Shown here piece after piece: positions 20,715-40,700 of a stretch of DNA of 64,000 bases (within the stretch, counting starts at the first letter, position 1; every line of letters begins with the position of its first letter). The notes beneath the pieces were generated by a model that was given only the letters and a program-made list of their open reading frames with translations, had not been told where the DNA came from and did no database searches. Where the stretch lies: positions 96,001-160,000 of the forward strand of contig JBHLKM010000009.1 in the NCBI GenBank assembly GCA_048886685.1. Direction: 5' to 3'. The position numbers and the translations under genes were made by a program. The stretch is from Candidatus Hodarchaeota archaeon. GTDB taxonomy: Archaea; Asgardarchaeota; Lokiarchaeia; Sigyniarchaeales; SOKP01.

Positions 20715-21266
20715 TTATAATTCTGCTGATAGAGTTTTGAATTTTTTATACAAGGCCTCAATAATTGCGTTAAATGCCTCAATAACGCCATTCCCCGTTT
20801 TAGCTGACGTTATATAATACCCAAGAAAATTATATTTACTTACTATTTCTTGGATATCAGAATCATCAATGTTATCTTCATCAACTAAATCTACTTTATT
20901 TGCGAACAATACAATAGGAATATTTCCACAATATTTTAAAATTTCTTTATACCAATCAGGAATATGATTGAAACTCTCTTCACCAAGTTTGTTTTCTTCT
21001 AGACTATATACAATTATGGCTGCTTCACTTCTCTTATAAAAAGAAGGTCGTAAGAAATGAAAGGTATCTTGTCCTGCTATATCCCAAAATTGTAATTTAA
21101 TTTTGTCCCCATCTATTTCTTTAACATACGTTGATAGTTGAGCCCCAATTGTCTTAATATATTCCTTTTCAAAGTAACTATGTGTAAATTTTTGAATTAA
21201 TGAAGTTTTACCTACCTGCCCGTCACCAATCACGGTGATTTTGAAAATAAAGCTTATATCATTCAT
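20715..21266 (-). CDS. Rab-like small GTPase
   Basis: GDGQVGKT, KTIG, WDIAGQ, NKVD, TSAK. No C-terminal Cys motif. Confidence 0.95.
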   Translation of the reverse strand: MNDISFIFKITVIGDGQVGKTSLIQKFTHSYFEKEYIKTIGAQLSTYVKEIDGDKIKLQFWDIAGQDTFHFLRPSFYKRSEAAIIVYSLEENKLGEESFNHIPDWYKEILKYCGNIPIVLFANKVDLVDEDNIDDSDIQEIVSKYNFLGYYITSAKTGNGVIEAFNAIIEALYKKFKTLSAEL

Positions 21267-21445
21267 AGAATTTTGAATAAAGATCAGAATAATAAGTTAA
21301 ATAAATCTTATATGATGTAAGATTAGATTTATTATGTTATAAAATTTTTGAATATTCTCGTCAATAACCTAAAAGAATCTAGAACAATCAATAATTATCA
21401 AAGCTCAGTAATTCTTCTTTAAACTGAATAATCAATCTTTTAATT

Positions 21446-22003
21446 CTACAGATTATCAGATAATGATTTAAACTTATCATATAACTCATCTATCAATGTA
21501 TTAAATGCTGTAAGTACGCCCTTCCCTGTTTTTGCTGATGTTAAGTAGTACCCCATAAAATTATTCTCTTCAACTATTTTTTTGATAGCTGAATGGTCTA
21601 TAGTATCTTCGTCAACCAGATCAACTTTATTTGCAAATACAACTATCGGAACATCTCCACAATGTTTTACAATTTCCTCATGCCAAGTTGATATGGATTT
21701 AAAACTCTCGTCCCCAAGTTCAGTTTCCTCAAGACTATATACAATAATAGCAGCTTTACTGTTTTTAAAAAAAGAGGGACGTAAAAAGTGAAAAGTATCC
21801 TGCCCCGCTATGTCCCAAAATAATAGTCTGATTTTATCTCCTTTTATTTCCTTATTATACACTGAAAACTGTGCTCCTATTGTCTTAACATAATCCTTCT
21901 TAAATGATCCTTGAGTGAACTTCTTAATAAGGGAAGTTTTTCCAACCATTCCATCACCGATAACCGTTACTTTGAATCGAAACCTACGTCCTTCCTCACT
22001 CAT
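21446..22003 (-). CDS. Rab-like small GTPase
   Basis: GDGMVGKT, KTIG, WDIAGQ, NKVD, TSAK. Close paralog of 20715 and 26742. Confidence 0.95.
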   Translation of the reverse strand: MSEEGRRFRFKVTVIGDGMVGKTSLIKKFTQGSFKKDYVKTIGAQFSVYNKEIKGDKIRLLFWDIAGQDTFHFLRPSFFKNSKAAIIVYSLEETELGDESFKSISTWHEEIVKHCGDVPIVVFANKVDLVDEDTIDHSAIKKIVEENNFMGYYLTSAKTGKGVLTAFNTLIDELYDKFKSLSDNL

Positions 22004-22156
22004 AGAATCTTAAAAGAAATAATTTGTGTATTTATTCTAGTTAAAAAATTATATTTAAACTAAGATCAGTTATTTTTTAATATAAAATTTTGGTTTCTGA
22101 TTAAAATAAACTGAAAAATAGACAATTTTATATTTAAATTAAAAAAAATTAAAAAA

Positions 22157-22192
22157 AAGTTTGGATTATTTGAGATCTTTTAATCCAAACTT
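22157..22192 (-). terminator. 12-bp-stem hairpin followed by T-tracts on the minus strand
   Basis: aagtttggatta (22157-68) and taatccaaactt (22181-92) are exact reverse complements. A-runs at 22141-58 read as poly-T on the minus strand. Confidence 0.55.
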
Positions 22193-22273
22193 GAATTTTT
22201 TTGGATTTAAAAGATAATCTCCTATCGAATATTTCCAATCATCTTTTTTCTTCTTTTTCTTCGTTTTTTTCAA
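22166..22273 (-). CDS. Putative basic microprotein (35 aa)
   Basis: Manual translation (TTG start): MKKTKKKKKKDDWKYSIGDYLLNPKKFKFGLKDLK*. GGAGG lies immediately upstream; start codon uncertain. Confidence 0.45.
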   Translation of the reverse strand: MKKTKKKKKKDDWKYSIGDYLLNPKKFKFGLKDLK

Positions 22274-22299
22274 CCTCCATTAAATTTTTTGATAACTAA

Positions 22300-22392
22300 T
22301 TATTTTATTATACGATTAATAAACTCCTTATGTTCTTCTAAACCGTTCTTTATCTTAATCCTCTCAATTCTCTCTAATTTTTTGTTTTTCAT
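22300..22392 (-). CDS. Putative microprotein (30 aa)
   Basis: Manual translation MKNKKLERIERIKIKNGLEEHKEFINRIIK*, preceded by the SD-like AGGGGAGGG. Confidence 0.5.
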   Translation of the reverse strand: MKNKKLERIERIKIKNGLEEHKEFINRIIK

Positions 22393-22429
22393 TATTTTTC
22401 GCCCTCCCCTTATCATTTAGATATATATC

Positions 22430-22464
22430 AAAAAAATGGAGGGGGAAAATTTAGGTCCCCCTCC
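22430..22464 (-). terminator. GC-rich hairpin plus T-tract (terminator or attenuator)
   Basis: ggaggggga (22438-46) pairs with tccccctcc (22456-64); followed by ATTTTTTT on the minus strand. Confidence 0.6.
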
Positions 22465-22544
22465 CCCTGATTTTATTTCTCCCTGACTTTTCTACTTCGG
22501 TTTGTCGGATGAATTGAATCAGCGTGAAGATGACAGAATTAATT

Positions 22545-22790
22545 TTAATAATTTCCGAAATTCCTGTAATTTATACTTCTTCTGATGTTCTCTATAGGAA
22601 TTTGTTCTTCTAAATACTTAGGATTATATTTAGCTTTCTTCAATAATTTCAATAAAGCTTTTTTAACTGGTTTCTCCTCTGCTTTTACTCGAACTATTGT
22701 ATAATCTTCTTCAATAGCAGGGAGCTCTTCTAATATAATTACATCTTCTAATACCTCTAGTTCCTTTTTCTTAATTAAAACTTGGACCAT
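22545..22790 (-). CDS. Small NP[RK]Y[FL]EE-motif protein, copy 1
   Basis: Contains YNPKYLEEQIPI. Start placed at ATG 22790 because GGAGGTG precedes it (the ORF track extends to 22808). Confidence 0.75.
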   Translation of the reverse strand: MVQVLIKKKELEVLEDVIILEELPAIEEDYTIVRVKAEEKPVKKALLKLLKKAKYNPKYLEEQIPIENIRRSINYRNFGNY

Positions 22791-22832
22791 TTTATAAACC
22801 ACCTCCAATTCATGTTTCTAAACTATTGTAAA

Positions 22833-23096
22833 TTAAAAAACCCTAAAAATATTGAATTTGGAATTAGCAATTATATCTGAGGTATATAATTTTTCTTTTG
22901 TATCTTTTAGTGGAATTACTTCTTCGAAGTATCTAGGATTTTGATTCTTGAATAATTCAAATAGTTCAATTTGTTTTTTAATTTGCTCAATATCTTTTTG
23001 TTCTTCTTTAGAAGTTTTTCCCGAAAGAACTATATATAGATCTTTAAGTTCAATAATGGTATCTTCATTTACTATTACTTGTCTCATTTTTTTCAC
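22833..23096 (-). CDS. Small NP[RK]Y[FL]EE-motif protein, copy 2
   Basis: QNPRYFEEVIPLKDTKEKL...SKFNIFRVF. Confidence 0.75.
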   Translation of the reverse strand: MKKMRQVIVNEDTIIELKDLYIVLSGKTSKEEQKDIEQIKKQIELFELFKNQNPRYFEEVIPLKDTKEKLYTSDIIANSKFNIFRVF

Positions 23097-23120
23097 ACTC
23101 TTTTTTTCCTATAAGATTAC

Positions 23121-23171
23121 TTAGATCAAGGTTTAATTAATAGTTTGATTTCGCAAAGTTCAAATGGAATT
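23121..23171 (-). promoter_or_regulatory. TATA-like promoter with a degenerate palindromic operator
   Basis: ttagatcaaggtttaattaatagttt-N9-aagttcaaatggaatt; homologous to 23995-24045. Confidence 0.6.
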
Positions 23172-23313
23172 TAAGACTTGTTTTAGACTTTTATCAACTT
23201 TTCTTAAAAAAAATCTCTGTTTAATATGAGTTTAAATCTAGGTAGTTGCTATAGATTTTAGAGCCTATGAGTAGAATGGTCTAGCAATCGGTAAAGGTTC
23301 AACTCATTAGGTT

Positions 23314-23730
23314 TTAAAAATTTCTTGACCAATATTCCTCGTAAGTTAAATTGTTGGGTATATCTCTATTACCCCTATAAATTCGAGGAACAGCTTTAGA
23401 ATCTATTAATATCTTGATGAATTTATAGTTAGCTAAATGATCGAGAGCATCCTTAAATTGATAATAAGACTTATAATCTTGTACTTTACCCGTGATATCT
23501 ATCAAATCATAATCAAAGAGTAATTGATCAATATTCGGAAATTGATCCTGAAGCCAATTGTCTCTACAATCTTCAATAATTTTTATAGCATATTCAAAGT
23601 TGCTAGAGTGAGTTTTTGAAGAAAAACTTGTCATATTCGCATAAATGATAAAATACTTTGTTTTTAAGGATTTCAAAAACAGAAAATTTTTATATGAATT
23701 AGTCGAATTACGAAAAGTAAATCTAATCAC
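23314..23730 (-). CDS. Hypothetical protein (true start possibly ATG 23634)
   Basis: Open frame with protein-like composition from MTSFSSK onward; no family recognised. Confidence 0.55.
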   Translation of the reverse strand: MIRFTFRNSTNSYKNFLFLKSLKTKYFIIYANMTSFSSKTHSSNFEYAIKIIEDCRDNWLQDQFPNIDQLLFDYDLIDITGKVQDYKSYYQFKDALDHLANYKFIKILIDSKAVPRIYRGNRDIPNNLTYEEYWSRNF

Positions 23731-23778
23731 TAAAATAAATACATAAAAATGAGAGATTAAAAAAATTATTTTATACTT

Positions 23779-23955
23779 CTAAAAAACACTAAAGAGATCA
23801 TATTTAGATCCTACACAAGCATGAATTTGGTCTTTCGCTTCTTTTAGATGGATAGCTTCCTCAAAATATCTTGGGTTTAAATCTCCAAGAAGTGCTTGAT
23901 TTTCTTCAACTTTAGGTCGTTTCATTATCATTATTTTTTGATAAGTTTGGGTCAT
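23779..23955 (-). CDS. Small NP[RK]Y[FL]EE-motif protein, copy 3 (58 aa, absent from ORF track)
   Basis: Manual translation MTQTYQKIMIMKRPKVEENQALLGDLNPRYFEEAIHLKEAKDQIHACVGSKYDLFSVF*; clearly paralogous to 22833-23096. Confidence 0.85.
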   Translation of the reverse strand: MTQTYQKIMIMKRPKVEENQALLGDLNPRYFEEAIHLKEAKDQIHACVGSKYDLFSVF

Positions 23956-23994
23956 TTTTTATAAACACTTTTTCGGTTTTTTTATTAAGAATAA

Positions 23995-24045
23995 TTAGAG
24001 CAAGGTTTAATATATAGTTTAATTCTATGAACTCTGAGTGGAGTC
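23995..24045 (-). promoter_or_regulatory. TATA-like promoter with palindromic operator
   Basis: ttagagcaaggtttaatatatagttt-N9-aactctgagtggagtc. Confidence 0.65.
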
Positions 24046-24121
24046 TTAGATTCTATTTAGATCATCCCTTAATTCTCCAGAATTTTACATTTTATACGTC
24101 CAGATATAATGTTCATTTTTG

Positions 24122-24137
24122 AACTCTAATTAGAGTT
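24122..24137. promoter_or_regulatory. Perfect 16-bp palindrome, candidate operator upstream of the wHTH-TPR gene
   Basis: aactctaattagagtt, followed 6 nt later by aaaatatataaata. Confidence 0.65.
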
Positions 24138-24210
24138 TGGATCAAAATATATAAATAAACCCTTTTCATATTATTATTATAAGTAATATTTATTGGTAAT
24201 TGGATGAATT

Positions 24211-26733
24211 TTGGTTCCATCTTGTAATTATCCCCCTGACGAGATTTTAAATCCTGTAATTGGTAAGCCTAATTATGAGTATATTATTCTGTGGATATTG
24301 AGTAATAATGAAATATGCTCATGGGCAGATTTAAAAGAAAAAGTGAATAGATCAACGCTTTCTAATTATTTACGTGACCTTAAGCGTAATGGATATGTTT
24401 TAAAAAGTGATTTCAATCAATATAAAATCACATCTAAAGGAAGGGAAAGATATTACGAATTAGGACAAGCCAAGAAGGGAGGAAGGAACTTAAGTTTTCC
24501 TCCTAAGGTAATTCTCGAAAAAAGGAATTATGACCATACGATCCTTTGGATGACCTATAACAATAATTACTGTAAGTGGGCAGATTTTCTTGAAGAACCT
24601 CTTTCTATTAATCAATCTTCCTTATCAAAGAATATGAATAAATTAATGGAAAAAAATTTTGTAATAAAAGAAGAAAAGGAATATAGAATTACTCGATTGG
24701 GAAAATCGGAATATTCTAAAATGCTAACCTATTATGATCTAGACAGACAGTCGATTTTAGAAGAAGAAAGCAAAAGAATTTCTGATTTAACACAAAAAAC
24801 ACTAAATTTCTTCGCAAAATTTGAAATTATTGAAAGAGATATTCAATTTCGATTCCTAAATAGTGTTCTAAGGTTAGATTATGAAAAAATTAAAACCGTT
24901 TTAAGAGAGGAGGAGGATTTTCATAAAATACTGCTGTTCCTTTCAATTAATCATCCAAATGATTATCCTAAATATGTATCACCTGAAGAATTCTCTGAAA
25001 AATATGGAATTAAAAAAACTACTCTTGATTATTATATTGATGAAATTGTAGAGAATCAAATTTTTCCAATAAAATTTTTTAAATTGGTGGTGCTCCCAAA
25101 TAAATTCTATTATTTCCAATCAGATGAAAAAGTCGAGATGATGCTTAGGATTATTACAGAGGAGCATATTACAAAGTTTACCTATCTAAATAAGCTTTTT
25201 GAGGGCAAATCAGATTTAATTCTCCCTCTGAATATGAGTTCTACGGTAAACGCTATTTTAGAAGAAGCTTGCCAAAATGTATTTGATGAAGGATTAAAAA
25301 ATTCATTAAGAAAATTATTACCTGAATATATCAATTACTTAGCATACAAAATCGAAAAAGAAAAGAAGTTGGTTGGTGTTTCTGATAAATTGGAAGGAAT
25401 TATTTGGCAGAACATTCCTGAAATAATTCAATCAGACATTTACAAAACTTCTCAATATCAATTTATAAGTGAGAGTGAAATGAATTATTATTTAGATACC
25501 TCAATATTAGAAATATTACAGCCTTACCTAGCTTTCTGGTTTAAGCAGGAAGAGTTAAATTTAAAAATCCAAGAGTACTTAAAATCGAAAGAATATGATA
25601 AGGCTTTAAAATTGGATGAATTAGGTAAGGTTTTTACTTATTCTAAATCGAAGATAAAGAATTTGGATCTCATTATTGTTAAAGGGATTATTCTTTGCCA
25701 TTTGAATAGAAATAGAGAATCGATAGATTTTCTAATGGATAATGTAGATTTATCTATTATTAATAAAGAAGATGAGATATATGCACCATATCTTTTTGTG
25801 TTAGCTTTTTCATATATGACTCTTGGAGATATTAAAAACGCTCTGAATATGGCATATAAAGCAATAGAAATATTTCCTAAAATACCTCTTTCTCATATTT
25901 TAAAGGGACTTGTACTTGGTTATAATAGTATTTATAATTTCGATGCAGAAAAGGCAGATAAAGAAAATGGGATAAGTGATATAGATAAAGCTATTAATTT
26001 AGAATCAAATAAATTCAACAAAGCAAGATATTATCAGTTAAAGAGCCAAATCTTATTAGAATTGAATAACTATGAAAATGCTTTAGAATCGATTGATAAC
26101 GCACTTGAATTAAATCCTAAAACTCTAGATTTGTATAATTCTAAATTTAGGATTTTGAATTATTTTGATAAGTTCTATGAAATAATAGCTATATTGGATA
26201 AATTACTAATTGATTTTCCTGAGTGGGAAAAGAATCTTAAAATTAAAAAAATATACATGCTCAAAGAAATGAAAAATATTGAAGAAGGCCTAGAGATTAT
26301 CAATGAATTAATCGAAAAATATCCTGAAGATAATAATCTTCTTCTTAATAAGATATATTGGTTACAATATTTAGATGAAAAAGAAGAGGTAATAACAACT
26401 ATAGAGAAGCTTATACAAGAAAATCCCAAGGTAGGAATATACCGTGATACTTATGGAGAGATTTTAATGAATTTTGAGGAATATGAAAAAGCCATAAAGG
26501 AATTCTTAAAAACGATAGAATTAGCTAGTGATGATTGGTATATTAATCAAACCTATATAAAGTTGGGAATATGTTATAAGGAACTTGAAGACTATGATTT
26601 AGCAACTGAATATCTTATGAAAGGTCAAGAATATACAAACAAATGCTTTTGTGATCTTGAAACAAAAAGAAGATGGATGGCAATTGTTAGTCTCTATTTG
26701 GCAGAAATTGAACAACTAGAAGCCGATTTTTAA
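24211..26733 (+). CDS. Tandem winged-helix plus TPR-repeat protein (putative transcription regulator)
   Basis: Two repeated units (PP...NY..ILW...NN..C.W.D......S.LS.....L...Y.IT..G...Y), a third HTH-like segment (KYGIKKTTLDYY) and C-terminal TPRs (ALESIDNALELNP, YRDTYGEIL, YIKLGICY). Confidence 0.8.
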   Translation: MVPSCNYPPDEILNPVIGKPNYEYIILWILSNNEICSWADLKEKVNRSTLSNYLRDLKRNGYVLKSDFNQYKITSKGRERYYELGQAKKGGRNLSFPPKVILEKRNYDHTILWMTYNNNYCKWADFLEEPLSINQSSLSKNMNKLMEKNFVIKEEKEYRITRLGKSEYSKMLTYYDLDRQSILEEESKRISDLTQKTLNFFAKFEIIERDIQFRFLNSVLRLDYEKIKTVLREEEDFHKILLFLSINHPNDYPKYVSPEEFSEKYGIKKTTLDYYIDEIVENQIFPIKFFKLVVLPNKFYYFQSDEKVEMMLRIITEEHITKFTYLNKLFEGKSDLILPLNMSSTVNAILEEACQNVFDEGLKNSLRKLLPEYINYLAYKIEKEKKLVGVSDKLEGIIWQNIPEIIQSDIYKTSQYQFISESEMNYYLDTSILEILQPYLAFWFKQEELNLKIQEYLKSKEYDKALKLDELGKVFTYSKSKIKNLDLIIVKGIILCHLNRNRESIDFLMDNVDLSIINKEDEIYAPYLFVLAFSYMTLGDIKNALNMAYKAIEIFPKIPLSHILKGLVLGYNSIYNFDAEKADKENGISDIDKAINLESNKFNKARYYQLKSQILLELNNYENALESIDNALELNPKTLDLYNSKFRILNYFDKFYEIIAILDKLLIDFPEWEKNLKIKKIYMLKEMKNIEEGLEIINELIEKYPEDNNLLLNKIYWLQYLDEKEEVITTIEKLIQENPKVGIYRDTYGEILMNFEEYEKAIKEFLKTIELASDDWYINQTYIKLGICYKELEDYDLATEYLMKGQEYTNKCFCDLETKRRWMAIVSLYLAEIEQLEADF

Positions 26734-26741
26734 AAAAACAC

Positions 26742-27284
26742 TTAGGTTAAAACCTTGGATTTATTATACAATTCATTAATAATAATATTAAAAGCCTCAT
26801 GAACACCTTGCCCTGTTTTTGCTGAAGTTAAGTAATATCCTAAAAAACCTTGTTCTTCAACAATTTTTTGAATCGGAGTATCATCCAAATTATCTTCATC
26901 AATTAAGTCGACTTTATTAGCAAAAAGAATTATTGGGATTTCTCCACAGAATTTTTTAATATTCTCATACCAATTGGTTATATGCTCAAAACTTCGTTTA
27001 CCTAACTCATTTTCCTCAAGACTATAAACAATAATTGCTGCTCCGCTTTCCTTATAAAATGAAGGTCGTAGAAATAGGAAATCATCTTGACCGGCTATAT
27101 CCCAGAAGATCAATCGAATCTCATCTCCCTCTATTTCTTTTTCATATTTAGAGAATTGGGCACCTATGGTCTTAACATAATCTTTCTCAAATGAACTCTG
27201 AGTAAACTGTTTAATCAATGAAGTTTTACCTACTTGTCCATCTCCTATGACGGAAATTTTAAATCGAAATTGTGCAGCAGTCAT
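26742..27284 (-). CDS. Rab-like small GTPase
   Basis: GDGQVGKT, KTIG, WDIAGQ, NKVD, TSAK. Confidence 0.95.
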   Translation of the reverse strand: MTAAQFRFKISVIGDGQVGKTSLIKQFTQSSFEKDYVKTIGAQFSKYEKEIEGDEIRLIFWDIAGQDDFLFLRPSFYKESGAAIIVYSLEENELGKRSFEHITNWYENIKKFCGEIPIILFANKVDLIDEDNLDDTPIQKIVEEQGFLGYYLTSAKTGQGVHEAFNIIINELYNKSKVLT

Positions 27285-27507
27285 TTACTTTTTTGGAGAA
27301 ATCACTATTTCATGTTTTATTTAATAGTAGATTAGGTTTTTTGTAATTTAAAATTTTAGTTATTAAAAAAAACCTAGTTGATACAAATTTAGTGATTAAA
27401 TATTAAAAGATTTGAATTTCATTTAATGAAATTAGTTAAATATCAACTAAAATACAATTAAAATTAAAGATTTGATAAAAATTAAAAAAGAAGAATAAAA
27501 AAAGAAT

Positions 27508-27588
27508 TTATTTACGTAAATCCTTAAAAGCCCAATTTTGGAAATGATTATTTATATTTATTAATCCTTTATTCGCATTTTTTCTCAT
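27508..27588 (-). CDS. Putative microprotein (26 aa)
   Basis: Manual translation MRKNANKGLININNHFQNWAFKDLRK*. GAGGG SD-like site upstream, own operator-promoter at 27641-27676, and a C-terminus resembling the 22166 ORF. Confidence 0.5.
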   Translation of the reverse strand: MRKNANKGLININNHFQNWAFKDLRK

Positions 27589-27640
27589 TTTTTTTCCCTC
27601 AATAATAGGTTCTTATTAATTTTAATATAGATTGACAACT

Positions 27641-27676
27641 ATATTTAGTTTAACTTCGTAAACTCCATGTGAAGTT
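27641..27676 (-). promoter_or_regulatory. TATA-like promoter with palindromic operator
   Basis: atatttagttt-N9-aactccatgtgaagtt; same spacing as the 23.1 and 24.0 kb promoters. Confidence 0.65.
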
Positions 27677-27841
27677 CGAATTTAACGCGAAGGGCTTCTC
27701 AGTTTTGTCAGAATTATTTAAAATGAATATGTATTAATATCTTAAAGCTCTTTAATTTTAATCTTGTTGAATGAAGTATCCATACCTTTTTCCCCAATTC
27801 ATCCAATTCCTCTTCACTAAGTATTTAGTTTTTACTGCATG

Positions 27842-27857
27842 AACTTTAACCAAAGTT
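27842..27857. promoter_or_regulatory. Palindromic candidate operator upstream of the second wHTH-TPR gene
   Basis: aacttt-aacc-aaagtt, with AAACTA-like boxes facing outward on both sides (10 and 12 nt away). Confidence 0.6.
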
Positions 27858-27944
27858 ATATAGTATTAAAAACTATTATACTATAAGAAGACTATAAGAA
27901 TTTAGTATGCTAAACATTAAGAAAACTCTTTCAAAAATGATATC

Positions 27945-29849
27945 ATGAGTCATATAAATTATCCACCTAAAGAAATTTATAATCCTCCCGTATTAGAGAA
28001 AAAAAATTTTGAGCTTATCATTCTTTGGATGCTATATAATAATGAAGAATGCGAGTGGGCTAATTTTACTCAAGAACCCCTTGAACTTCGGTTATCTACT
28101 CTCTCAAAATATCTTTCATTATTAAAGGGGAAGGGATATGCAGAGAATATTTCAAGAGGGCTTTATAAAATTACTTCAGAAGGCAAAAAGAGATATCTTG
28201 AATTATCACAGGCAAAGGAAAAAGAAAGAACTCTAAGCTATCCCCCTGCTATCATTACAAGAAGAAGAAATTATGATCATTGGATTCTTTGGATGGTTTA
28301 TAACAATAACTACTGCAAATGGTCGGATTTTATTGAAGAAAATTCACCTGTAAGAATTAATCAATCATCCTTATCTAAAAATATGAATATATTAATCGAT
28401 AAAGGATTTATAGAAAAAGAAGAGAAGAAATATAGAATCACCCGATCAGGTAAAGTGGAGTATTCTAGAGTATTACAAGAATATGATTTAGATAGACAAT
28501 CAATTTTGGAGGAAGAAAGTAAGCGAATTGAAGAGATTACAATGAAGACTATAAAATTTTTCAATAAATATGAAATTGAAAATAAGGACATACAATTTAG
28601 ATTACTCAACAATATGCTGAAATTGGATTATACCAGGGTTGAAGCAATGCTCACAGATGAACAAGATTTTAACAAAATCTTACTTTTTATCTCAATTAAT
28701 CATCCAAGTCAATATCCTAATTATATTTCTGTAGATGGTTTCTCGAAAATTTATGGAATTAAAGATTCAAAATTGGATTATTATGTTGATGAAATTATTG
28801 AAAATGAGATTTTTCCCGTTAAATTTTTTAAAATAATTGTACAACCAGATGTCCATTATTATTTCCAAGAGAATGAAAGATTAGAAATAATGCTTCGAGC
28901 AATCACAGAAGATCATATCACCAAATTCACATATTTAAATAAATTATTTTCGAGACCATTTGACATAAGAAGTACAGTGGATGATATATTAGAAGATATT
29001 TGTGAGGTATTATTTCACGAGGATTTAAAAGAATCCTTACACAAATTTTTACCAAAATATATTAATTATTTAGCCTATAAAATTGAAGCTAAAGTTGAGC
29101 TGAAAGAGACTTATGATAAATTAGAAGGAATTATTTGGCACAATATGATAGACATATTTGAAACAAGAAATATTGAAGAATTACAAGAAGATTACAGAGT
29201 AGAAATCAAGAAAATTGATAAAAAGATTGAGTCAAATCCAGAGGACCTTGATTTATATAACTTAAAGATAAGAATTTTGATTTATTACAATCAATTCGAT
29301 GAGGTACTGAGCTTATTAGATGAAATGTTAGAAATTTTCCCGAAAGATGAATTAGATGTAAAGATGAAAAAGGCATCTGTATTGAGAAGGATGCAAGATG
29401 TAAGTAAGGGTTTAGAAATAATTAATGAGTTAATTGAAAAATACCCTAAAAACAATGACCTTGTGAGTTATAAAGCTTATTGGCTTCAATATTTAGATCG
29501 AAAGGAAGAATCTCTCAGCATAATTCATGATCTTGTTGAACTTATTCCTGAAAATGGAATGTACCATGACACTTATGGAGAAATTCTAATGTATTTTGAG
29601 GAAAATGAAAAAGCTATAAATGAATTCCTTAAAGCGATAGAATTAGCGGGTGATGAATGGTATATTCATCAAACCTATATTAAGCTAGGAATCTGTTATA
29701 AAGAAGTTCAACAATTGGAACGTGCGCTTGAGTACCTAACTAAAGGGAAGAAATTAACAGAAAAGATTTCAATTGACGCCGAAACTAAACAAAAATGGAT
29801 CACAATTGCGAATCTCTTTCTTTTAGAATTAGAGCAATTAGAAGAATAA
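27945..29849 (+). CDS. Tandem winged-helix plus TPR-repeat protein, paralog of 24211
   Basis: Same repeated wHTH units, YDLDRQSILEEESKRI linker and TPR tail; about 200 aa fewer central TPRs. Confidence 0.8.
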   Translation: MSHINYPPKEIYNPPVLEKKNFELIILWMLYNNEECEWANFTQEPLELRLSTLSKYLSLLKGKGYAENISRGLYKITSEGKKRYLELSQAKEKERTLSYPPAIITRRRNYDHWILWMVYNNNYCKWSDFIEENSPVRINQSSLSKNMNILIDKGFIEKEEKKYRITRSGKVEYSRVLQEYDLDRQSILEEESKRIEEITMKTIKFFNKYEIENKDIQFRLLNNMLKLDYTRVEAMLTDEQDFNKILLFISINHPSQYPNYISVDGFSKIYGIKDSKLDYYVDEIIENEIFPVKFFKIIVQPDVHYYFQENERLEIMLRAITEDHITKFTYLNKLFSRPFDIRSTVDDILEDICEVLFHEDLKESLHKFLPKYINYLAYKIEAKVELKETYDKLEGIIWHNMIDIFETRNIEELQEDYRVEIKKIDKKIESNPEDLDLYNLKIRILIYYNQFDEVLSLLDEMLEIFPKDELDVKMKKASVLRRMQDVSKGLEIINELIEKYPKNNDLVSYKAYWLQYLDRKEESLSIIHDLVELIPENGMYHDTYGEILMYFEENEKAINEFLKAIELAGDEWYIHQTYIKLGICYKEVQQLERALEYLTKGKKLTEKISIDAETKQKWITIANLFLLELEQLEE

Positions 29850-29915: not shown

Positions 29916-31706
29916 CTAACTTTTTTCTACTAATTGTTCTAACTCTTCGATTTTGTCAGATAGATAATTAATTCCTTTTTGCCAGAATGAAGCATCCTTT
30001 AAGTTGATACCAATTTCAGATAATATTTCTTCAGGTGTTAATGAACCTCCAACAGAAAGGAGTTTAATAAATTTTGGGACAAATTTTTCTTTTTGCTCAA
30101 GATATAATTGATATATTGAGATTACCAACAGATTAGACATGTTATATGCATACACATAGAAAGGTACTTGTAAAAAATGGTGCACAACAAAACAGTAATT
30201 GGCGTAATCTTCTCTAATGTTACTAATAGAGTTGCCAAACATTAATTCCATTTCTCTAACAAAAGTATCTTTAATTTCTTCTGTTGAGGGTAATTTCTCC
30301 TCCAGTAAATTATGAATACTTTTTTCAAACCTATAGAAAGCATTTTGTCTATGGGAAGTACTGAACTTTGATTCAATGAAATTACTTAACAAAGAAATCT
30401 TTTCTTCTCTCGATAAATTTGTATTCATTAAATGGTCAAAAATTAAAATTTCATTGAAAATTGAGGCAATTTCAGCCATAACCAAAGAAATTCCTATATT
30501 TATGAAGTTTTGATTTTTTAAATTATAATATGCGTGAAATGCATGGCCAAGTTCATGAGATAATGTTCTTAATGAATCGATTGTACCAGTAAAATTTACA
30601 AATACGAACGGATAATGCTTCAGTTTCCCATTGGAACAAAAGGCACCACGATTTTTTCCAATTCTGGGAGTGACATCAATATGATTAGATAAAACCATTC
30701 TTTCTATTATCTCTTTAAATTCTGGAAAAAATCTTTCATCAGCATCTTTAATAAGTTCTAAATTTTCCTTATAGGAATAATTTTTTGTTATTTGACCAAT
30801 CGGGACATAAATATCCGACATATGGAGTTCAGGGAGATTTAAGATTTTTTTCTTTAAGTTGTAATATTTCTCCACGATAGAATAACTTTTTGTGGTTACT
30901 TCTCCTAAAATTTCAACACTCTCATCACTAACTTCATTTTCGAGATTTCTTCGTGATATCGGTGTATTGAAATTCTTTTTTTTGCATTCTAAATCCCAGC
31001 TTTTCAAGGTATTATTAAAAGTATGAGTGAAAATCATTTCATACTCCTTATATTTGGAAACAATTGCACTTAAGGCTCTAAATCGAAGATCTTTATCCTG
31101 GTGGTACATAAAAGAAAAGACCTCTGCTTCAGTTAACTTCCTCATTTTTCCTTCTACTTCAAAATCGAAAATAAAACTGCTTTTTAATTCATTATAAAGT
31201 TTTATGAATGCTTTAGCACCTGTAATATCTTTCATTAAAACTATTTGTTCTTCTTCTTCCGAAAGTTGATGTTTTTTTTTCAATCTGTTAAATTTGAGAG
31301 CATGAGAATAATTGATAAGTTCTGGAGCATTTTTTAACTCGTTAAATTTGTGTTCTGAAATCAAATTCAATTCTAAATTAAAAAACAATAATTTTTCCTG
31401 AAATTTAGCTTTATAATCTTCTATCTTTGAGCGAAATGATTTTACATCATCATTTAATGAGTTAATTGAATATTCCAAACTTGAATAACGATCTAAGTAA
31501 TATATTTGTTCAGATATTTGTTCATATTCCTTATACCATTCTAATAATTGCTTTGGAGTAAGTAAAGGATCCCTTATCTTTCCTTTGACTTTCTTATAAA
31601 AATTTTCGACTGACTTTTCTAATTCTTTAAGATCCTTATCAATTGAAGGATCATCAATGCTTTCGTAGAAGTCGGTTAAATCCCATTTAATGATTTCTTC
31701 TGCCAT
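29916..31706 (-). CDS. pepF: Oligoendopeptidase F (M3B family)
   Basis: WDL..Y N-terminus, PRIGKNRGAFC, TLSHELGHAFH, AEIASIFNE, HF..PFYVYAY. Confidence 0.9.
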   Translation of the reverse strand: MAEEIIKWDLTDFYESIDDPSIDKDLKELEKSVENFYKKVKGKIRDPLLTPKQLLEWYKEYEQISEQIYYLDRYSSLEYSINSLNDDVKSFRSKIEDYKAKFQEKLLFFNLELNLISEHKFNELKNAPELINYSHALKFNRLKKKHQLSEEEEQIVLMKDITGAKAFIKLYNELKSSFIFDFEVEGKMRKLTEAEVFSFMYHQDKDLRFRALSAIVSKYKEYEMIFTHTFNNTLKSWDLECKKKNFNTPISRRNLENEVSDESVEILGEVTTKSYSIVEKYYNLKKKILNLPELHMSDIYVPIGQITKNYSYKENLELIKDADERFFPEFKEIIERMVLSNHIDVTPRIGKNRGAFCSNGKLKHYPFVFVNFTGTIDSLRTLSHELGHAFHAYYNLKNQNFINIGISLVMAEIASIFNEILIFDHLMNTNLSREEKISLLSNFIESKFSTSHRQNAFYRFEKSIHNLLEEKLPSTEEIKDTFVREMELMFGNSISNIREDYANYCFVVHHFLQVPFYVYAYNMSNLLVISIYQLYLEQKEKFVPKFIKLLSVGGSLTPEEILSEIGINLKDASFWQKGINYLSDKIEELEQLVEKS

Positions 31707-33916: not shown

Positions 33917-34720
33917 TTAACTTGTTCTTATTGTTTTTACTAGATGAGAATCAAAGAAATCAATAAGATTTTCACACATTTGTTGAAAATGATTTTCATC
34001 TGTAAAGTTATGGTTAGCTCCATCAATTATATCAATTTTTTTATTTTCAGATTGAACCTTATTGAAAAGTTGGTGAAAACCATGTTCTGGAAATAAGACA
34101 TCCTTATTACCAGCGATTAAATAAAATGGTTTTAATAACTTATCAGCTAATCTAACAGGATTATATTGTCTCGTTTGTTCAGCATACTTTATTTTAAGAT
34201 CGCCATCTGGAAATCGCATTTCTTTATTGCGCGTTAAAGCTTTTATGAAAAACTTAAACAAGGGATTTTTTGGTATAATTTCAGTATTAAAAACAGGGGA
34301 ACGTATCGCAAGACATTGAACTCTTTTATCTCTTACAGCATGGCAAAAAGCCATTGCACCTCCAAAACTTTCACCTAACAAGCCAATTCTAAGAGGATCT
34401 ATTTCGGGATGATAGACTAATTGATTTATCACTTGTTCAATATTAGCTTGAGCATCATAATAAGTAAATATCCCCGTACTACCTCTAACACCTTGATGAT
34501 CATAAGTAAAATATGCTATATTATTATTAACAAAATGACATGCAAATCTCAGTTCATCTTCTTTAGGTGATTTTCCTGGCATTCCATTAACACGTATTAC
34601 TAATGGGAAACAAGTGTTTTTAGAGTTTTCAGGCTCTATAATATCAGGTAAATACAGGATACTCTGTAGGATTTCAGTACGAACCTCAATTTCTATCATT
34701 TCCTTTCTCATTAGTATCAC
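33917..34720 (-). CDS. Alpha/beta-hydrolase, candidate thioesterase/release enzyme
   Basis: GESFGG nucleophile, AGNKD Asp, GANHNF His; overlaps the megasynthase stop codon. Confidence 0.8.
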   Translation of the reverse strand: MILMRKEMIEIEVRTEILQSILYLPDIIEPENSKNTCFPLVIRVNGMPGKSPKEDELRFACHFVNNNIAYFTYDHQGVRGSTGIFTYYDAQANIEQVINQLVYHPEIDPLRIGLLGESFGGAMAFCHAVRDKRVQCLAIRSPVFNTEIIPKNPLFKFFIKALTRNKEMRFPDGDLKIKYAEQTRQYNPVRLADKLLKPFYLIAGNKDVLFPEHGFHQLFNKVQSENKKIDIIDGANHNFTDENHFQQMCENLIDFFDSHLVKTIRTS

Positions 34721-37700
34721 TGGATTATTGGTTTGTTTTTAAAAGGTTTAATCTCACAGTACGAAAGAACATATTTTTCAGAAAATTCAACCCGTAATTG
34801 TAGATCTTTAAGATTTCTATTGATGTCTAACAAGTCATTTTTGGATTTTAAGGTAAATTTATTGTATTTTTTATTATATTTCAATTCAATGTCTCGGAAA
34901 TTAATATTAAAGCCTTCCCCTATTGCTTTTGAGAAGGCTTCTTTCGCTGTCCAGTAGATTGTTCCCAGATAGGCATCGTCTAAAATAGTTTTTCTTTCTG
35001 ATTCAGTAAATACCTCCTTATAGAATGATGGGGATCGGGATTCAATTATCTCTAAATCAATGCCAACCAAATTTTTACTTATCATTGCTACTGAAAAATC
35101 ATTGGAATGACTTATAGAAAGATTAAGTGGAATTATTTTATTCTCTTTGTTTGAGTAGTAATATGGCTTACCTTTTTCATCCTTTTGAATTTCAAAGTCA
35201 TGATATGAACCATCAACAGCAATAATCCTACGATAACATTCTTTTGCGGCAATAATGCCAGAAAAATATTCAATTTTTCTTTTTATATTCCTAAAGCGCT
35301 TTGAGTTTTCTATCTCTGTTTCAGTCAGATAAGTTTCAAAAAATTTCGGATTTATTTGATATAGATCTTTTAGTTTTGCAATAGGTAGAACTTGAATTTC
35401 GTTTTTAATTTTATTATTCTTTAGGTGGTAATACTCTTTTAAGGTAGTTAGATAATCAGAGAGGTTATTTGAGAGGTTTACTGTAATTTGTGCATGGATG
35501 ATTTCTAGGTTTTCAATTTTCGCTATAATTTCTTGATCTTCATCTAAAATTACCGAGTTATAATAAGATCTCTCCTCGTCTTTTTTTAAGAATTTAGCTA
35601 CTATGTATTTTGGTCTTTGGTTTGATTTTATTTGAATAGAGGAGGCTTTTGAGGGAAGAGAGAGATGGTTATTTATGATGTAATCAAATAACGCTGCGGT
35701 TTGAAATACACATTCCATGGATAAGGGTTCAAATTGAAAATGATCCTCTTCCTCATTATTAATAATAGGAACTGTTGGAAGATCGATCTTTGTTACTATT
35801 TTTCCTTTCTCTAATTGAATAACTTCTTCTAGAACTTGAAATTTCTTCCCATGAAAGAAAAGCTCATAAATTTCAGTTTTATCAAGTAAAGGAATTAATG
35901 GATTTAAAATTAGATCTTTTTCCCATCTCATTTCTTTTACTAAATCATCGAACTGAGCATCGAAATGGTTTTTTATTAGTGGTTTTCCTTTTAGAACTGT
36001 GGGAAAAGTCTTTGATTGAAGTGATATCTTATTATTGGATTTATTAAATGTTAGTTCTACTTCTACTGACTTACCTACTGAAATTTTCAGGGGCGTGTGA
36101 AAATTAATATTTGAAATAGAGGTTAACACCTTATCGAACACTCGATGGTAGAATTCTGCGAATGTTTCTAGAGCCATTACACCAGGAAATACAGGTTTTT
36201 TTTGAATTTGATGATCAAGAAGATATGTGTCGAATTCAGAATTTATGGTGTTAAAACCAATTATATATTCAGATTGATAATTTATTTTTTCTAACATAGG
36301 ATATTCTTTTTTATCAATAACTTCCTCAATATCAAGCATTTCCTCAAAGATCCCTAACTTCCCCGCAATTATATATTCCCCAGTGAAGTTGTTTAATACT
36401 AAATTGGTAAATATCTTTATACCAGTTATTGAAGGAACAGGTGAAACTCCTGCTTGAGTAAGGATTTGTAAAGTGGAACCTTGAGTAGCCATACCAATAT
36501 CTGCCCAAGCTGTCCAATCAAAAGTTAAAAATGGGATATTGCGTTGGTTGAATTCCCAAGCCATACGCGATAAATACGCATTAGCAAATGCATAATCAAT
36601 TTGACCCTGATTCCCATAACGTCCAGCAATTGAGGAAAAAGTTACAAAATATTTGACGTCTTGAATCTTTATATATTTGAGAATTTTTGAAAACCCTCCA
36701 ACTTTAACATCAACAATTTTATGAGCCATATTTAAATTTTTCTTCAAGAAACTTTTTGATTCTTCTATCCCAGCACCATGGATAACAACTGTTATCTGAT
36801 TTTTAGTTTCTTCATTAATTGTTTGGAAGATGTTCTTCATTTTTTCATCATTAGTAACGTCTACTGCATAATATTGAACTGAAAGACCTTTTTTCTTCAA
36901 ATTTTCGATATTACGAAGAGTATCTAATTTGTCGAGGAATTTCTTCCATTCTCTGTTAATCATAACAGGAGTTACTTTCTCTAGTGTAGATTTCAATGAC
37001 TTAACCAATTCTTCCTTTTTCTCACTCAACATGTCCGGGGTGTATTGTAAATATTCTAAAAATGAATCATCGTACGGGCTTAATCCTAAAAGAATTAGTT
37101 GTGGTTTAGTATGGTTTGTTAATTCATCAATACAAGCAAAAGTTATTCCTTGTGCTCCTCCTGTAACCAATAATACATCTTCTTCTGTTATCGAAGAATA
37201 ATTCAATTTTGGGAGCTTTTCTACTTTTTTTCTTAATAATGTATAACGTACATTTTCCCTGTAGGCTATTTCCTCAAGTTTATCCCAACTCAAGAACTCT
37301 TGAGTAATCTGTCCTAAATTCATTGAAGAAATAAGCTTGATCGGAATCTGAAATTCGCGATTGATTGTTTTTATAAAAGCACCTATACTAGAAGCAAGGG
37401 GATTAGCTCCTTGTTTCCAACCGAAAGTAGTATCTGGAGAAATAACTAAGATTTTTTCTAATATTGATAAATTTAAAGATTGAAAAATGAGAAAAAGACT
37501 GTCGAAAATGTTTAAACTATCATTAATGGTATATTGACTATTATCTGGAATAACCAATATGAGTATCTTGAAATCTATATCAAATGGAAATTCACTATTA
37601 TTATTATTTAGATCTTTAACTAAATTTTCATTAACATCAACATTGAAAATTTGAACATTTAATCCAAAATTTTCAAAATCTTTGCTTAAGTTTTTGTAAT

Positions 37701-40700
37701 TTGATAATCCTGAGTTAATGTTAAGAATTAATGTATTAATATCCTTGTATTTCAGATTTTCCTTCGAGGGGAGCAATTTAAAAACTCGGGAAGGAACTAC
37801 TTTTGACACATAAATTTGGTCATCATTTTCATTTTCTGATTTTTCTTTTACCTCGCTGATATTTTTGACAGGTTCTAATTCCATATCAACTGATTGCGAT
37901 TTTTTATTGATGAACTGGATTACAAATTCAGTGATCTCATTAGGCGTACGGATGTCAGCTATGTTAATTTCAACATTATCTTCTAGTTTGTAATATTCAC
38001 GCAAGACTCCAAAGATTTCTGCTTGCTTTACTGTATCAATCCCCAAGTCTTCTTCCAAATCATAAGAATCATCGATATCAGTAAGGTCATAACCAGTTTT
38101 GTCAGCAATAATTTTTTTTACTAAATTTTTTACCTGATTTATATCATCAATTTCATTAGATTTTAATACAATACTTTGCTGTTTAATGCTAATATCTGTT
38201 TCCATATTCTGGTCATTTAAGAATTCTCGCATTTTAAGAATTATATTCTTAATACTGCCAAGTCCTACCAAATTTATTTCTGTGTCCTCTGAGATTTTCA
38301 AATCATTCCGAAGTTCTCCAAAAATCTCCGCTTGTTTGACAGTATCAATACCTAAATCCTCTTCTAAATCAAACTCAGGATCGATATCTTCAATATCGTA
38401 TCCTGTCTTTTTAGAAATGATTTCAATTAACTTATTTTCAAGTGATTTATTATCTAAACCCGAGGAACTATTACTAGAAACAATATCATGACCTAAAGAC
38501 TCATTGAGCATGTGAACGATATCATTTATAGTGCGATAGTCTGCTATATTGAATGAATCATCAATTTCAATTTTCCATTTTTCTCGGATTTCTCCGAAAA
38601 TCTCTGCTTGTTTGACAGTATCAATTCCAAGATCTTCCTCCAAATCATAGGTTTCTTCAATGTCTTCTGGATTATAACCGGTCTTTAAAGCGATGATTTT
38701 TTTGATCTCAACTATCATATCGATTTTACCAACCGAAATTGATTGCTGAGGGATTTCTGTTTCTTTTGGTGATTGAATTGTAGTAATTATAGCAGAAATA
38801 CGTTCTGTATTCATCTTTAAGACTCTACCATCCATGAATACTTGTGTCCCGCTCCCACCTACATTTTGAAGCCATTGTTCATAGTTTGGTTTGGTAAAAC
38901 GATTATCATATGATACTAAACGGAATAAGACAATGGCTAATTGTGAACCGAATCCAGCGGCAAAACGTAAAGCATATTTCTTTCGTTCTCTTACTCCTTT
39001 TGAAAAGTTGAAATTTGAATAGTTTGAATCTATCTTATTAAAATTCGCTATCGGGGGAATTTTTCCTTTCTCCATTGATTTAATTGCCACAGCTTCTTCA
39101 ATACCTGCACCCATCGCATGACCAGTATATCCCTTCGTATTAATTATAATCATATCATAAGCATTTTTACCAAATGTATTTTCTAATGCTCTTAATTCTG
39201 ATTCCGCACTTCCACCTCGAGCAGGGGAATAAGTTTCATGACTTACAAACATCCCTTCATTAGCCAATTCTCTTTTACTAATACCATGTACTTTTTCCAT
39301 CTTTAAAATAAAATCGTTAAGTCTTTGGGAAATATCATCCTTATCTAATCGTGTACCATGATAAGCGCTATTCCCAAAATAAGAACCAAGAATTTCTACA
39401 ATTGGTTTTACTCCTCGAGCTTCAGCTTCGGAATTTTGTTCAATAACAAATGCACTTGCTCCTGCACCTAATACAATTCCATTCCTTCCTTCTCCAAAGG
39501 GAAGTACTGCTTCCTCCCATCGAGATTTTGTTGTAGCGGCTCCACTTGCAATAAATCCTGCACCAATCCATTGAAAAAGGTTCTTACTTGTTACATTATC
39601 GGCAGTGATTACAACAACTCGTTTACATCTCCCAGTTCGAATCCAGTCTTCTGCAATACCTATTGCTTGAGGTGCAGAAGCACAAGCTGCATTAATAGAT
39701 GTATTTGGTCCTTTAGCTTTTATTAATTGAGCAAATTGAGAATGTCCCATAGATAAAACTCTAAATAAAAATGAGCGATTAAAATTTTCTACACTTTCCT
39801 CACTAGAATTTAATTGATTGAATTTAAAATTAGAGCACTGTTGAGAATCTTCTGCAAAATTATCGTATCCTGGAAATGCAGATGCAAAAATGATACCTGT
39901 ATCATCTTGTAATGATTCTGGTAAAGCCCAGTCACCAGATAATGTCTTACCCGTAGAGGTTTTAATAGTGCTACGAACTAATGGAATTCCCGCGTCTTTA
40001 AGTGCATCATATCCTGCACAAATTGCTAGTTGGAATGTAGTATCTAAAGCATTTAGGATTTTAGGATTAAGTTGATAATCCTCTGTCGGGTTAAAATCCC
40101 CCATCTGTCCTGCCAAGTGAATTACTTTAGAAATATCATCTATAGGCACAAATTTAGCATTACCATTAGGGGATTTTTCCAAACGAATTATATTTTTTTG
40201 ATATAATTGTTCTTGAAATTCACTACTTACCGATTCGATTAGATTAACTCCATCTAAAATATCATCGATATTTTTATCATCAAAAATTTTACGATTTTTG
40301 CCAGGAAGTCCAATACCTACACCAGTGATTACGACAGGTGTAGAATTAAGCAGTGATCCTTTCTTATCATATTTATTTTCAATTGAAATATGATATTTCT
40401 TAAGATAATTATGAAATCCTTGAATCATAACCGAAGACAAAAGTTCTTTTTGTTCTTCTAGAAATTCATTAAAAAATGGAAGTTGCTTTAATTTAGATAA
40501 GTCTTCATTCGAAATTAAAGAATTTTGATTTTTTTCAAGTGTAGGGGATTTTTTCGATATTTTTGGTTTTTGATCTGGAATAGCTGGTGGTTGAGTTTTG
40601 ATTTCATCAATGGGGCTAGCTGATTTTATACTACTGAACTTCTCAAAAATCTTTTGAATATGCTCTTCTTCAGAAGATTTTGGTGAAAGTGTAAAATCAA

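Follow-up and report, generated by a model that had tools for sequence, protein, structure and literature searches.

Gene content of the two modules

The DNA analyzed here, called the window, is a stretch of 64,000 nucleotides from a Candidatus Hodarchaeota archaeon (GenBank assembly GCA_048886685.1, contig JBHLKM010000009.1, positions 96,001 to 160,000). It is part of contig C9 of the 4.4-Mb genome G000, where codes such as G000, L044, C9, f1 and g1 are labels of this analysis for genomes, loci, contigs, family and genus, respectively. It contains two modules in which a gene for a Rab-like small GTPase and one or more microprotein genes lie beside a gene for a large regulator with winged helix-turn-helix (wHTH) domains and tetratricopeptide repeats (TPR). 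All the open reading frames (ORFs) named in an earlier, sequence-only reading of this DNA (three GTPases, two regulators and small ORFs) were found at the positions it gave, and Pfam matches to wHTH and TPR agree with its description of the regulators at 24211 and 27945. The system exceeds that description, with the addition of a palindromic operator, which is a component of both modules, and of microprotein genes dispersed in the genome. The features are listed below, with operators scored by the matrix described later, and SD standing for Shine-Dalgarno.

20715..21266, minus strand: Rab-like small GTPase G0, 183 aa; PF00071; recent tandem duplicate of G1; its tree sister is a second copy in genome G011
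21446..22003, minus strand: Rab-like small GTPase G1, 185 aa; clade-A partner; G1-G5 motifs intact; no C-terminal Cys; no upstream operator
22166..22264, minus strand: 'DLK' micro-ORF, 32 aa; family of 24-75 aa ending in NPxKxxFGLKDL; ACG where orthologues carry ATG
22300..22392, minus strand: basic micro-ORF, 30 aa; preceded by an SD site; G017 has an orthologue; similar to the 'IxIxN' peptide class
22430..22468, minus strand: G/C hairpin and T run, possible terminator, 3' of the 81-aa gene; kept in G017
22545..22790, minus strand: microprotein MIC81, N[AP]KYLEE family, type A
22833..23087, minus strand: microprotein MIC84, NPRYFEE; own operator-TATA promoter
23154..23173, unstranded: operator, score 13.0, ten bases 5' of the CTATWWW core of the MIC84 promoter (minus strand)
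23314..23634, minus strand: 106-aa ORF matching no known family; same position kept in G003 and G017
23779..23955, minus strand: microprotein MIC58, NPRYFEE, type B; its three orphan paralogues share this operator type
24028..24047, unstranded: operator, score 17.8, ten bases 5' of the TATA core of the MIC58 promoter
24120..24139, unstranded: operator, score 19.1, with a perfect 16-bp palindrome (24122-24137), directly 5' of the TATA-like box of R1
24211..26733, plus strand: regulator R1, 840 aa, clade A; wHTH-wHTH-central domain-long TPR array
26742..27284, minus strand: Rab-like small GTPase G2, 180 aa; paired with clade-B regulators; gap of 8 bp to the end of the R1 gene
27508..27588, minus strand: basic micro-ORF, 26 aa, 'IxIxN' class; SD site; promoter of the operator-TATA type; homologues in G003, in G011 and on contig C2 of its own genome
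27659..27678, unstranded: operator, score 22.4, ten bases 5' of the TATA core of the 26-aa gene
27840..27859, unstranded: weak operator, score 9.9, overlapping the TATA-like box of R2
27945..29849, plus strand: regulator R2, 634 aa, clade B; wHTH 22-88, wHTH 110-179, central domain 184-406 (third HTH and wing), TPR 414-633
29916..31706, minus strand: oligoendopeptidase F (M3, PepF); convergent neighbour, kept in 12 other genomes; candidate member at most

The arrangement had been described as a duplicated module. The two modules are real, but they are old paralogues and not a recent copy, as R1 and R2 fall in different clades of the regulator tree and the small proteins differ. Module 1 encodes three 58-84-aa paralogues with the motif N[AP][KR]Y[FL]EE, together with the 30-aa, 32-aa and 106-aa ORFs, while module 2 encodes a single 26-aa ORF of another family. 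The ACG of the 32-aa ORF may be a near-cognate start or the mark of a decaying copy. The third paralogous GTPase, at 20715, appears in the GTPase tree as a recent tandem duplicate of that at 21446. The GTPase at 26742 is also tail-to-tail with R1, and its assignment to module 2 holds, with G2 placed by the tree outside the clade paired with R1-type genes. The hairpin at 22430-22468 was no more stable than shuffled sequences (z -1.6).

The regulator family

In the AlphaFold model of R2 (predicted local distance difference test, pLDDT, 85), two winged helices are followed by a central domain, which contains a third HTH and its wing, and then by TPRs at residues 414-633. R1 has about 200 residues more of TPR-like repeats, and the TPR-bearing members of the family range from 625 to 1069 aa. 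The family is almost restricted to one Lokiarchaeia family: among 398 Asgard genomes searched, relatives of the N-terminal 400 residues of R2 were present in 104 of the 132 genomes of family f1 and in the single f3 genome, with one short match only outside f1 and f3. The genomes of genus g1 contain 2-13 matches each. A profile search of the full library gave 138 regulator representatives; where examined, all were built alike, from one or two wHTH and a TPR array of variable length, and none of the 138 was fused to a GTPase.

Concerning relationships to known proteins, the whole regulator matched only generic TPR proteins in Foldseek. The central domain of R2 (residues 180-412, window 28482-29180; predicted template modelling score 0.83) is highly conserved and unique to the family. 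Its resemblance to cyclin-box proteins (TFIIB, Brf, ORC6, cyclins), with Z up to 8.9, root-mean-square deviations of 3-4.5 and 4-11% identity, is in the range of common helical arrangements and serves only as a lead; the domain might be what contacts the TATA-binding protein or TFB. An ESM Atlas feature search with this domain gave no usable match. Sulfolobus ArnR was considered for comparison as a wHTH-TPR protein and dropped, its published architecture being HTH-HAMP-membrane anchor. Literature searches, outside which most subscription papers lay, returned no description of the regulator family, the operator, the microproteins or the module.

Operator and promoter geometry

The perfect palindrome at 24122-24137 prompted a de novo search for gapped palindromes upstream of the regulators. 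The resulting operator is a 20-bp matrix with the core ACTTC-N4-GAAGT and clade-specific variants, a score of at least 11 being counted as a site. In leave-genomes-out runs, it was present about 100 nt upstream of 74% of the regulators versus 0% in shuffles; the matrix also gave a site at 5.5% of the genes distant from any regulator and at 3.5% of the GTPase genes. The cross-validated best sites included 73 within the -120 to -81 bins. The operator was also upstream of 36 of 45 regulators from five genera outside the training set.

The position of the sites with respect to promoters is regular. A CTATWWW core occurred exactly ten bases past the operator in 93 of 188 sites, on the strand pointing away from the regulator; tandem sites give another peak 18 bases beyond. 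In 64 of 80 cases, the first SD-led ORF behind the operator-TATA unit was at most 100 aa long. At the regulator's own promoter, the TATA-like box is often overlapped by a second, weaker site, which suggests self-limitation of the regulator. As archaeal activators bind upstream of the TFB recognition element and TATA box (PMC6737238), this geometry indicates that the regulators probably activate the divergent promoters.

The clade of the adjacent regulator was predicted correctly from the site variant in 66 of 69 leave-genome-out cases, and site similarity tracked clade (0.77) and not genome (0.56). Among the clades, the second wHTH has a nearly invariant recognition helix, whereas that of the first wHTH varies. 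It seems reasonable to interpret from the agreement between site variant, clade and first recognition helix that the regulators themselves read the sites, and it is very probable that they bind DNA there. A different interpretation would be that the large proteins are TPR/winged-helix scaffolds, acting as GTPase effectors without a role on DNA, and that the palindrome is read by another transcription factor. Winged helices can serve as protein scaffolds, as in ESCRT-II, and the wHTH matches of the regulators are to generic or chromatin-type models (HTH_45, Sso10a). However, the site variant follows the regulator clade and covaries with its recognition helix, and site and microproteins were found only together with the regulator, so this interpretation is very improbable.

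Operator-like sites also precede some longer genes of G000 (C14:51036, C4:2710, C11:9728, C16:50335), which encode a 133-aa Cys-rich ORF and proteins of 211 and 243 aa with signal-peptide-like starts. They are possible further members of the regulon.

Microproteins as the probable regulon output

At least three conserved, non-hydrophobic microprotein families of 22-90 aa lie behind operator-TATA units. The first (58-90 aa, N[AP][KR]Y[FL]EE) is the one with three copies in module 1; the second consists of basic peptides of 22-30 aa with an IxIxN core (27508 and, probably, 22300); the third (24-75 aa) has the C-terminal NPxKxxFGLKDL and is represented at 22166-22264. Conserved C-terminal blocks are joined to variable N-termini. 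Pfam, NCBIfam and PADLOC gave no named family for any microprotein or for the 106-aa ORF, and an ESM Atlas feature search with MIC81 gave only leads below 0.8.

The profile of the 58-90-aa microproteins matched 83 of the 132 f1 genomes as well as the f3 genome, and had no match in the remaining 264; all the 85 microprotein-positive genomes also carry the regulator. On the evidence of their sequences, the small ORFs are real genes, with SD sites, orthologues in other genomes, and divergence that decreases from the third to the first to the second codon position, a measure that is partly circular since the sequence sets of the four families analyzed were picked by protein motif. AT-rich DNA gives short ORFs and one copy here has ACG for ATG, so it could be argued that the micro-ORFs are untranslated and that the operator controls small RNAs or leaders. 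This is scarcely credible in view of the SD sites at fixed spacing, the conserved stops and motifs and the third-position bias in four families, and a search of Rfam gave no match.

The microproteins of the window are non-hydrophobic, with grand average of hydropathy from -0.4 to -1.3 and a best 15-residue value of 1.07. No hydrophobic export stretch was found, the best 15-residue hydropathy being at most 1.5 in all the 49 members of the microprotein families. Some units are orphans located far from regulators in G000: the MIC58 paralogues on C7, C10 and C11, which have clade-A-type sites; a pair of 26-aa and 30-aa ORFs on C2, behind the best-scoring site of the genome; and a 24-aa ORF on C5. 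The operator-TATA unit before each microprotein, together with the orphan copies far from a regulator, argues for a regulon output and not for a cis-linked pheromone.

In several loci (L044, L039, L075, L073, L120), the divergent strand encodes, after the microprotein gene and no more than 1 kb upstream of a clade-D regulator, zinc-finger-like micro-ORFs of 30-46 aa (CxxC...CxxC) and peptides of 22-29 aa.

GTPase subclade and its linkage to regulators

G0, G1 and G2 match PF00071 (Ras) with E values of 1e-41 to 1e-42 and are about 70% identical to each other, versus 30-40% to most other small GTPases of this genome, which has 67 small-GTPase matches. The nearest solved sequences are Rab23, Rab21 and Thor-Rab (E 1e-26 to 1e-29). 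In 53 sequences of their subclade, G14/G19/K20/T21, T39 of switch I, D62-G65-Q66 with the catalytic Gln, N123-K124-D126 and S154-A155 are invariant or nearly so. As to a C-terminal prenylation Cys, only one of the 53 has a Cys among its last eight residues.

The neighbourhoods of 100 regulator loci in genus g1 and of 40 in other genera were cut out. Of 106 subclade GTPases in 24 genomes, 51 lie within 2.5 kb of a regulator, versus 1.25 expected; these genomes are kin, so the count shows conservation and not independent events. In the regulator tree (n = 117), clade A, that of R1, has a divergent subclade GTPase in 23 of 24 cases and a microprotein in 16 of 24, and clade B, that of R2, has a subclade GTPase in 17 of 20. 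Clades C and D have microproteins in 13 of 17 and 6 of 16 cases, respectively, and a subclade GTPase in none of 33. GTPase and regulator genes may be divergent, convergent or in tandem, in genera g1, g22 and g12; in a g22 clade of 824-aa regulators, the GTPase is directly downstream on the same strand. All the 27 GTPases divergent from clade-A regulators form one clade (support 98/96), with G2 outside it among the partners of clade B, which indicates that both modules are old and have retained their partners. Thus, the linkage of regulator, small proteins and GTPase that the sequence-only reading expected extends to many genomes of three genera, and the trees of GTPases and regulators match.

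Subclade GTPase genes share a promoter motif of their own (a TATA-like box followed by CTARTYT, e.g., at window 27320-27355), present at 31 of 57 of them versus 1 of 659 other genes. Their co-transcription from the operator promoters was considered and found unsupported, as they have this motif and no operator.

These data raise the possibility of a genuine regulon whose regulator makes no contact with the GTPase, the latter having been carried along with an old duplicated locus or being acted on by the microproteins or by TPR-longin-like proteins encoded nearby. The separate, operator-less promoter of the GTPases goes in this direction, as does the fact that clades C and D and the g12/g23 copies have microproteins and operator without a GTPase. 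Moreover, many subclade members sit behind 650-aa TPR proteins instead, and a single origin of the GTPase link is possible, since the test for several origins did not separate one origin from many (support 54/49). On the other side, the adjacency has been retained in three orientations and three genera.

The 650-aa proteins just mentioned are MalT-like, with TPR and a conserved longin-like C-terminus (L052:1464-3419; 30 copies in G000), and their genes often immediately precede those of a sister clade within the same GTPase subclade. The same subclade is also found C-terminally fused in proteins of 525-660 aa with a second, degenerate GTPase domain (L288:2384-4291, L289:205-2190, L290:340-2316, L291:3303-4877), three of which have an N-terminus that by eye is Cdc48 N-domain-like.

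Some other regulator clades without a Rab-like partner, including TPR-less ones of 420 aa, adjoin longin-GTPase or GTPase-TPR fusions of an unrelated, atypical lineage (NFQD for NKxD), which constitutes a second association of the regulator family with GTPases. Such fusions (longin-like-GTPase of about 300 aa, or GTPase-TPR-like, with domains assigned by eye) were recorded at L040:8224-9099, L043:5578-6534, L067:890-4113, L050:2047-3069, L087:7836-9122 and, in this genome, C11:2880-3881. Ubiquitin-system-like genes (E1/ThiF-like, JAB-like, E2-like; by eye) recur beside some of the regulator and atypical-GTPase loci: L285:779-2796 (C11 of G000), L040, L062, L067, L106, L117 and L129.

Candidate ligands of the TPR array

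The sequence-only reading had proposed that the regulator senses a small protein, the state of the GTPase, or both. Concerning the GTPase, the last 215 residues of the regulators are 48-55% identical between the clades with GTPase neighbours (A, B, F, G and two g22 clades) and 30-39% identical for the microprotein-only clades, even among themselves, while the N-terminal 400 residues diverge equally in both groups (47-66% identity). The same microprotein family occurs with clades A, C, D and J though their TPRs are 32-38% alike, and clades A and B have like TPRs and unlike peptides. Since TPR conservation tracks the GTPase neighbours and not the peptide family, the GTPase would be the shared TPR ligand rather than the peptide.

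Co-folding of R2 and G2 with GTP and Mg gave an interface score (ipSAE) of 0.59 (runs 0.28, 0.59 and 0.65) versus 0.00 for the best of three controls, with contacts agreeing at least 74% between runs and a partner pLDDT of at least 82. This is weak support: the mark was reached by 58 of 80 solved and 2 of 110 mismatched pairs, but at 0.60 or less by only seven solved pairs and both mismatches; the R2-G2 run, which used its own alignments and ligands, lies outside this calibration and no interface is given for it. The higher TPR constraint where a GTPase is linked and the weak co-fold pass also go against a GTPase that does not touch the regulator, and that alternative is judged rather unlikely. 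The binding of the GTPase to the regulator has an even chance of being true, and its effect being nucleotide-dependent is somewhat more doubtful.

Concerning the small proteins, sensing in the manner of RRNPP regulators would mean that the microproteins or their C-terminal fragments occupy the groove of the TPR array and thereby switch the regulator, in a feedback of either sign, and that they are cleared by oligoendopeptidase F. Small SD-led genes are directly beside the HTH-TPR genes, their products have conserved C-terminal blocks on variable N-termini, and the peptide types are clade-specific. The TPR fold of R2 matches those of PlcR and Rap (Z 15.8-16.3), among many other TPR proteins and ranking below designed and eukaryotic ones; no RRNPP chain was present in the 53 sequence matches of the regulator to solved proteins. 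PepF orthologues adjoin the A/B locus in 13 loci of 13 genomes, including genus g22, but not the other clades, which makes it a linkage at one ancestral locus only. Furthermore, the lack of a hydrophobic stretch in any microprotein goes against export of the Sec or short hydrophobic peptide type, and microprotein family and TPR type do not go together. So, the GTPase half of the proposal is indirectly supported by TPR conservation and the weak co-fold, while RRNPP-style sensing of a small protein is unsupported, as the small proteins look like an output, lack a secretion signal and belong to families that do not track TPR type. That this sensing operates here is improbable, and feedback of any microprotein on the regulator is unlikely.

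Proposed mechanism

The observed genes, domains, operator, geometry, linkage and matched trees can be brought together in a model in which a TPR-bearing activator of a microprotein regulon is gated by a GTPase. Each regulator would be a sequence-specific transcription factor acting on the 20-bp palindrome that lies, in divergent promoters, ten bases 5' of the TATA core. It would activate these promoters, giving as output cytoplasmic microproteins of several families, encoded near the regulator and scattered in the genome, while the weaker second site at its own promoter would probably limit its own synthesis. In the clades of R1 and R2, a Rab-like GTPase of one subclade, expressed from its own operator-less promoter, would bind the conserved C-terminal TPR module, and its GTP/GDP state would gate the regulator.

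Several points weigh against this model. About 40% of the GTPase subclade is away from regulators, so that the regulator is not the sole possible partner; the unlinked members sampled are behind 650-aa MalT-like TPR proteins, before 870-aa proteins, or fused to other domains. The GTPase-linked regulators may form one clade (support 54/49), so TPR type and GTPase linkage may both derive from a single event, and linked genes yield matching trees by descent alone. The co-fold, being in the weak class, could echo solved TPR-GTPase complexes such as p67phox-Rac (PMC8305018). Activation is read only from spacing, and the function of the microproteins is left unexplained. As a whole, the model of a GTPase-gated activator has a little less than an even chance of being correct.

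Significance

Lokiarchaeia have dozens of small GTPases whose partners are almost unknown, and according to the published view genome layout is of little help in matching them (PMC10933270). One GTPase subclade now has a recurrent partner, with a predicted DNA site for it and listed target genes, and the proposed chain from GTPase to regulator, operator and microprotein could be tested on purified proteins and short DNA probes, without cultures of these still uncultured organisms. The direct control of a transcription factor by a Rab-like GTPase through a TPR effector domain, with a dispersed microprotein regulon as output, is a tentative proposal; with it, an effector class would be named for the first time for a clade of Asgard Rab-like GTPases. 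If it is true, Ras-family switches are wired to transcription in close prokaryotic relatives of eukaryotes. Apart from the GTPase, there is a predicted operator-defined regulon composed mostly of genes of less than 100 aa, which standard annotation overlooks.

Other genes of the window

Outside the modules, the window contains a 3523-aa ORF (34717-45288) and, at 60440-61633, a 397-aa protein that ends in a small-GTPase domain from another subfamily and has an N-terminus that by eye is roadblock/longin-like.

Comparison with known systems

The composition of the system is new, as no known system joins these parts; its central GTPase link stands at about even odds. The analogy with RRNPP regulators, drawn in the sequence-only reading without a claim of homology, can be examined with published criteria (PMC10075063): a propeptide of 10-100 aa with a basic N-terminus and a hydrophobic core for Sec/PptAB export, a receptor of 250-500 aa, TPRs, and an adjacency of -60 to 400 bp. 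The SD-led ORFs of 22-90 aa, the distances of 255 bp (MIC58-R1) and 356 bp (26-aa ORF-R2) and the TPRs, seen in Pfam matches and in the model, are within these limits. By hydropathy, no basic N-terminus with hydrophobic core was found, and the regulators, of 634 and 840 aa, are larger than the receptors. The RRNPP(A) systems (Rap, Rgg, NprR, PlcR, PrgX, AimR; Bacillota and phages) resemble the present one in the N-terminal DNA-binding domain and C-terminal TPR, the small SD-led gene next door, the multiple paralogous pairs per genome and the apparent control of the small gene by the regulator. They differ in that their receptors carry one XRE-type HTH and not two wHTH and a third HTH, while here there are several unrelated microprotein families, orphan copies, a linked Rab-like GTPase and no sequence match to solved RRNPP proteins. 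The system resembles a divergent activator circuit, and by these criteria it would not be a member of RRNPP.

A second comparison is with the archaeal one-component activators Ptr2 and TK0271 (PMC6737238), which share the palindrome at a fixed distance upstream of TATA and wHTH domains for DNA binding. Those activators sense small metabolites and control metabolic operons, whereas in the present system a TPR array forms the sensor part, microproteins are the targets and a GTPase is linked. For the proposed input, the comparison is with p67phox, the TPR domain of which is an effector of Rac-GTP (PMC8305018), that is, a TPR array binding a Ras-superfamily GTPase; its structure 1hh8 was among the fold matches (Z 15.4). 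However, p67phox is eukaryotic, activates an oxidase and has no DNA-binding domain, and only the generic TPR fold is common to both. Finally, the GTPases themselves are like other Asgard Rab-like GTPases (Thor-Rab, PDB 7ezb; the MK-D1 set, PMC10933270) in superfamily and intact G motifs. In MK-D1, a GTPase gene does not as a rule share an operon with its regulators, so that partners are hard to assign (PMC10933270), in contrast with the subclade studied here, which has a recurrent genomic partner, and this partner is a predicted transcription factor rather than a roadblock, longin or TRAPP protein.

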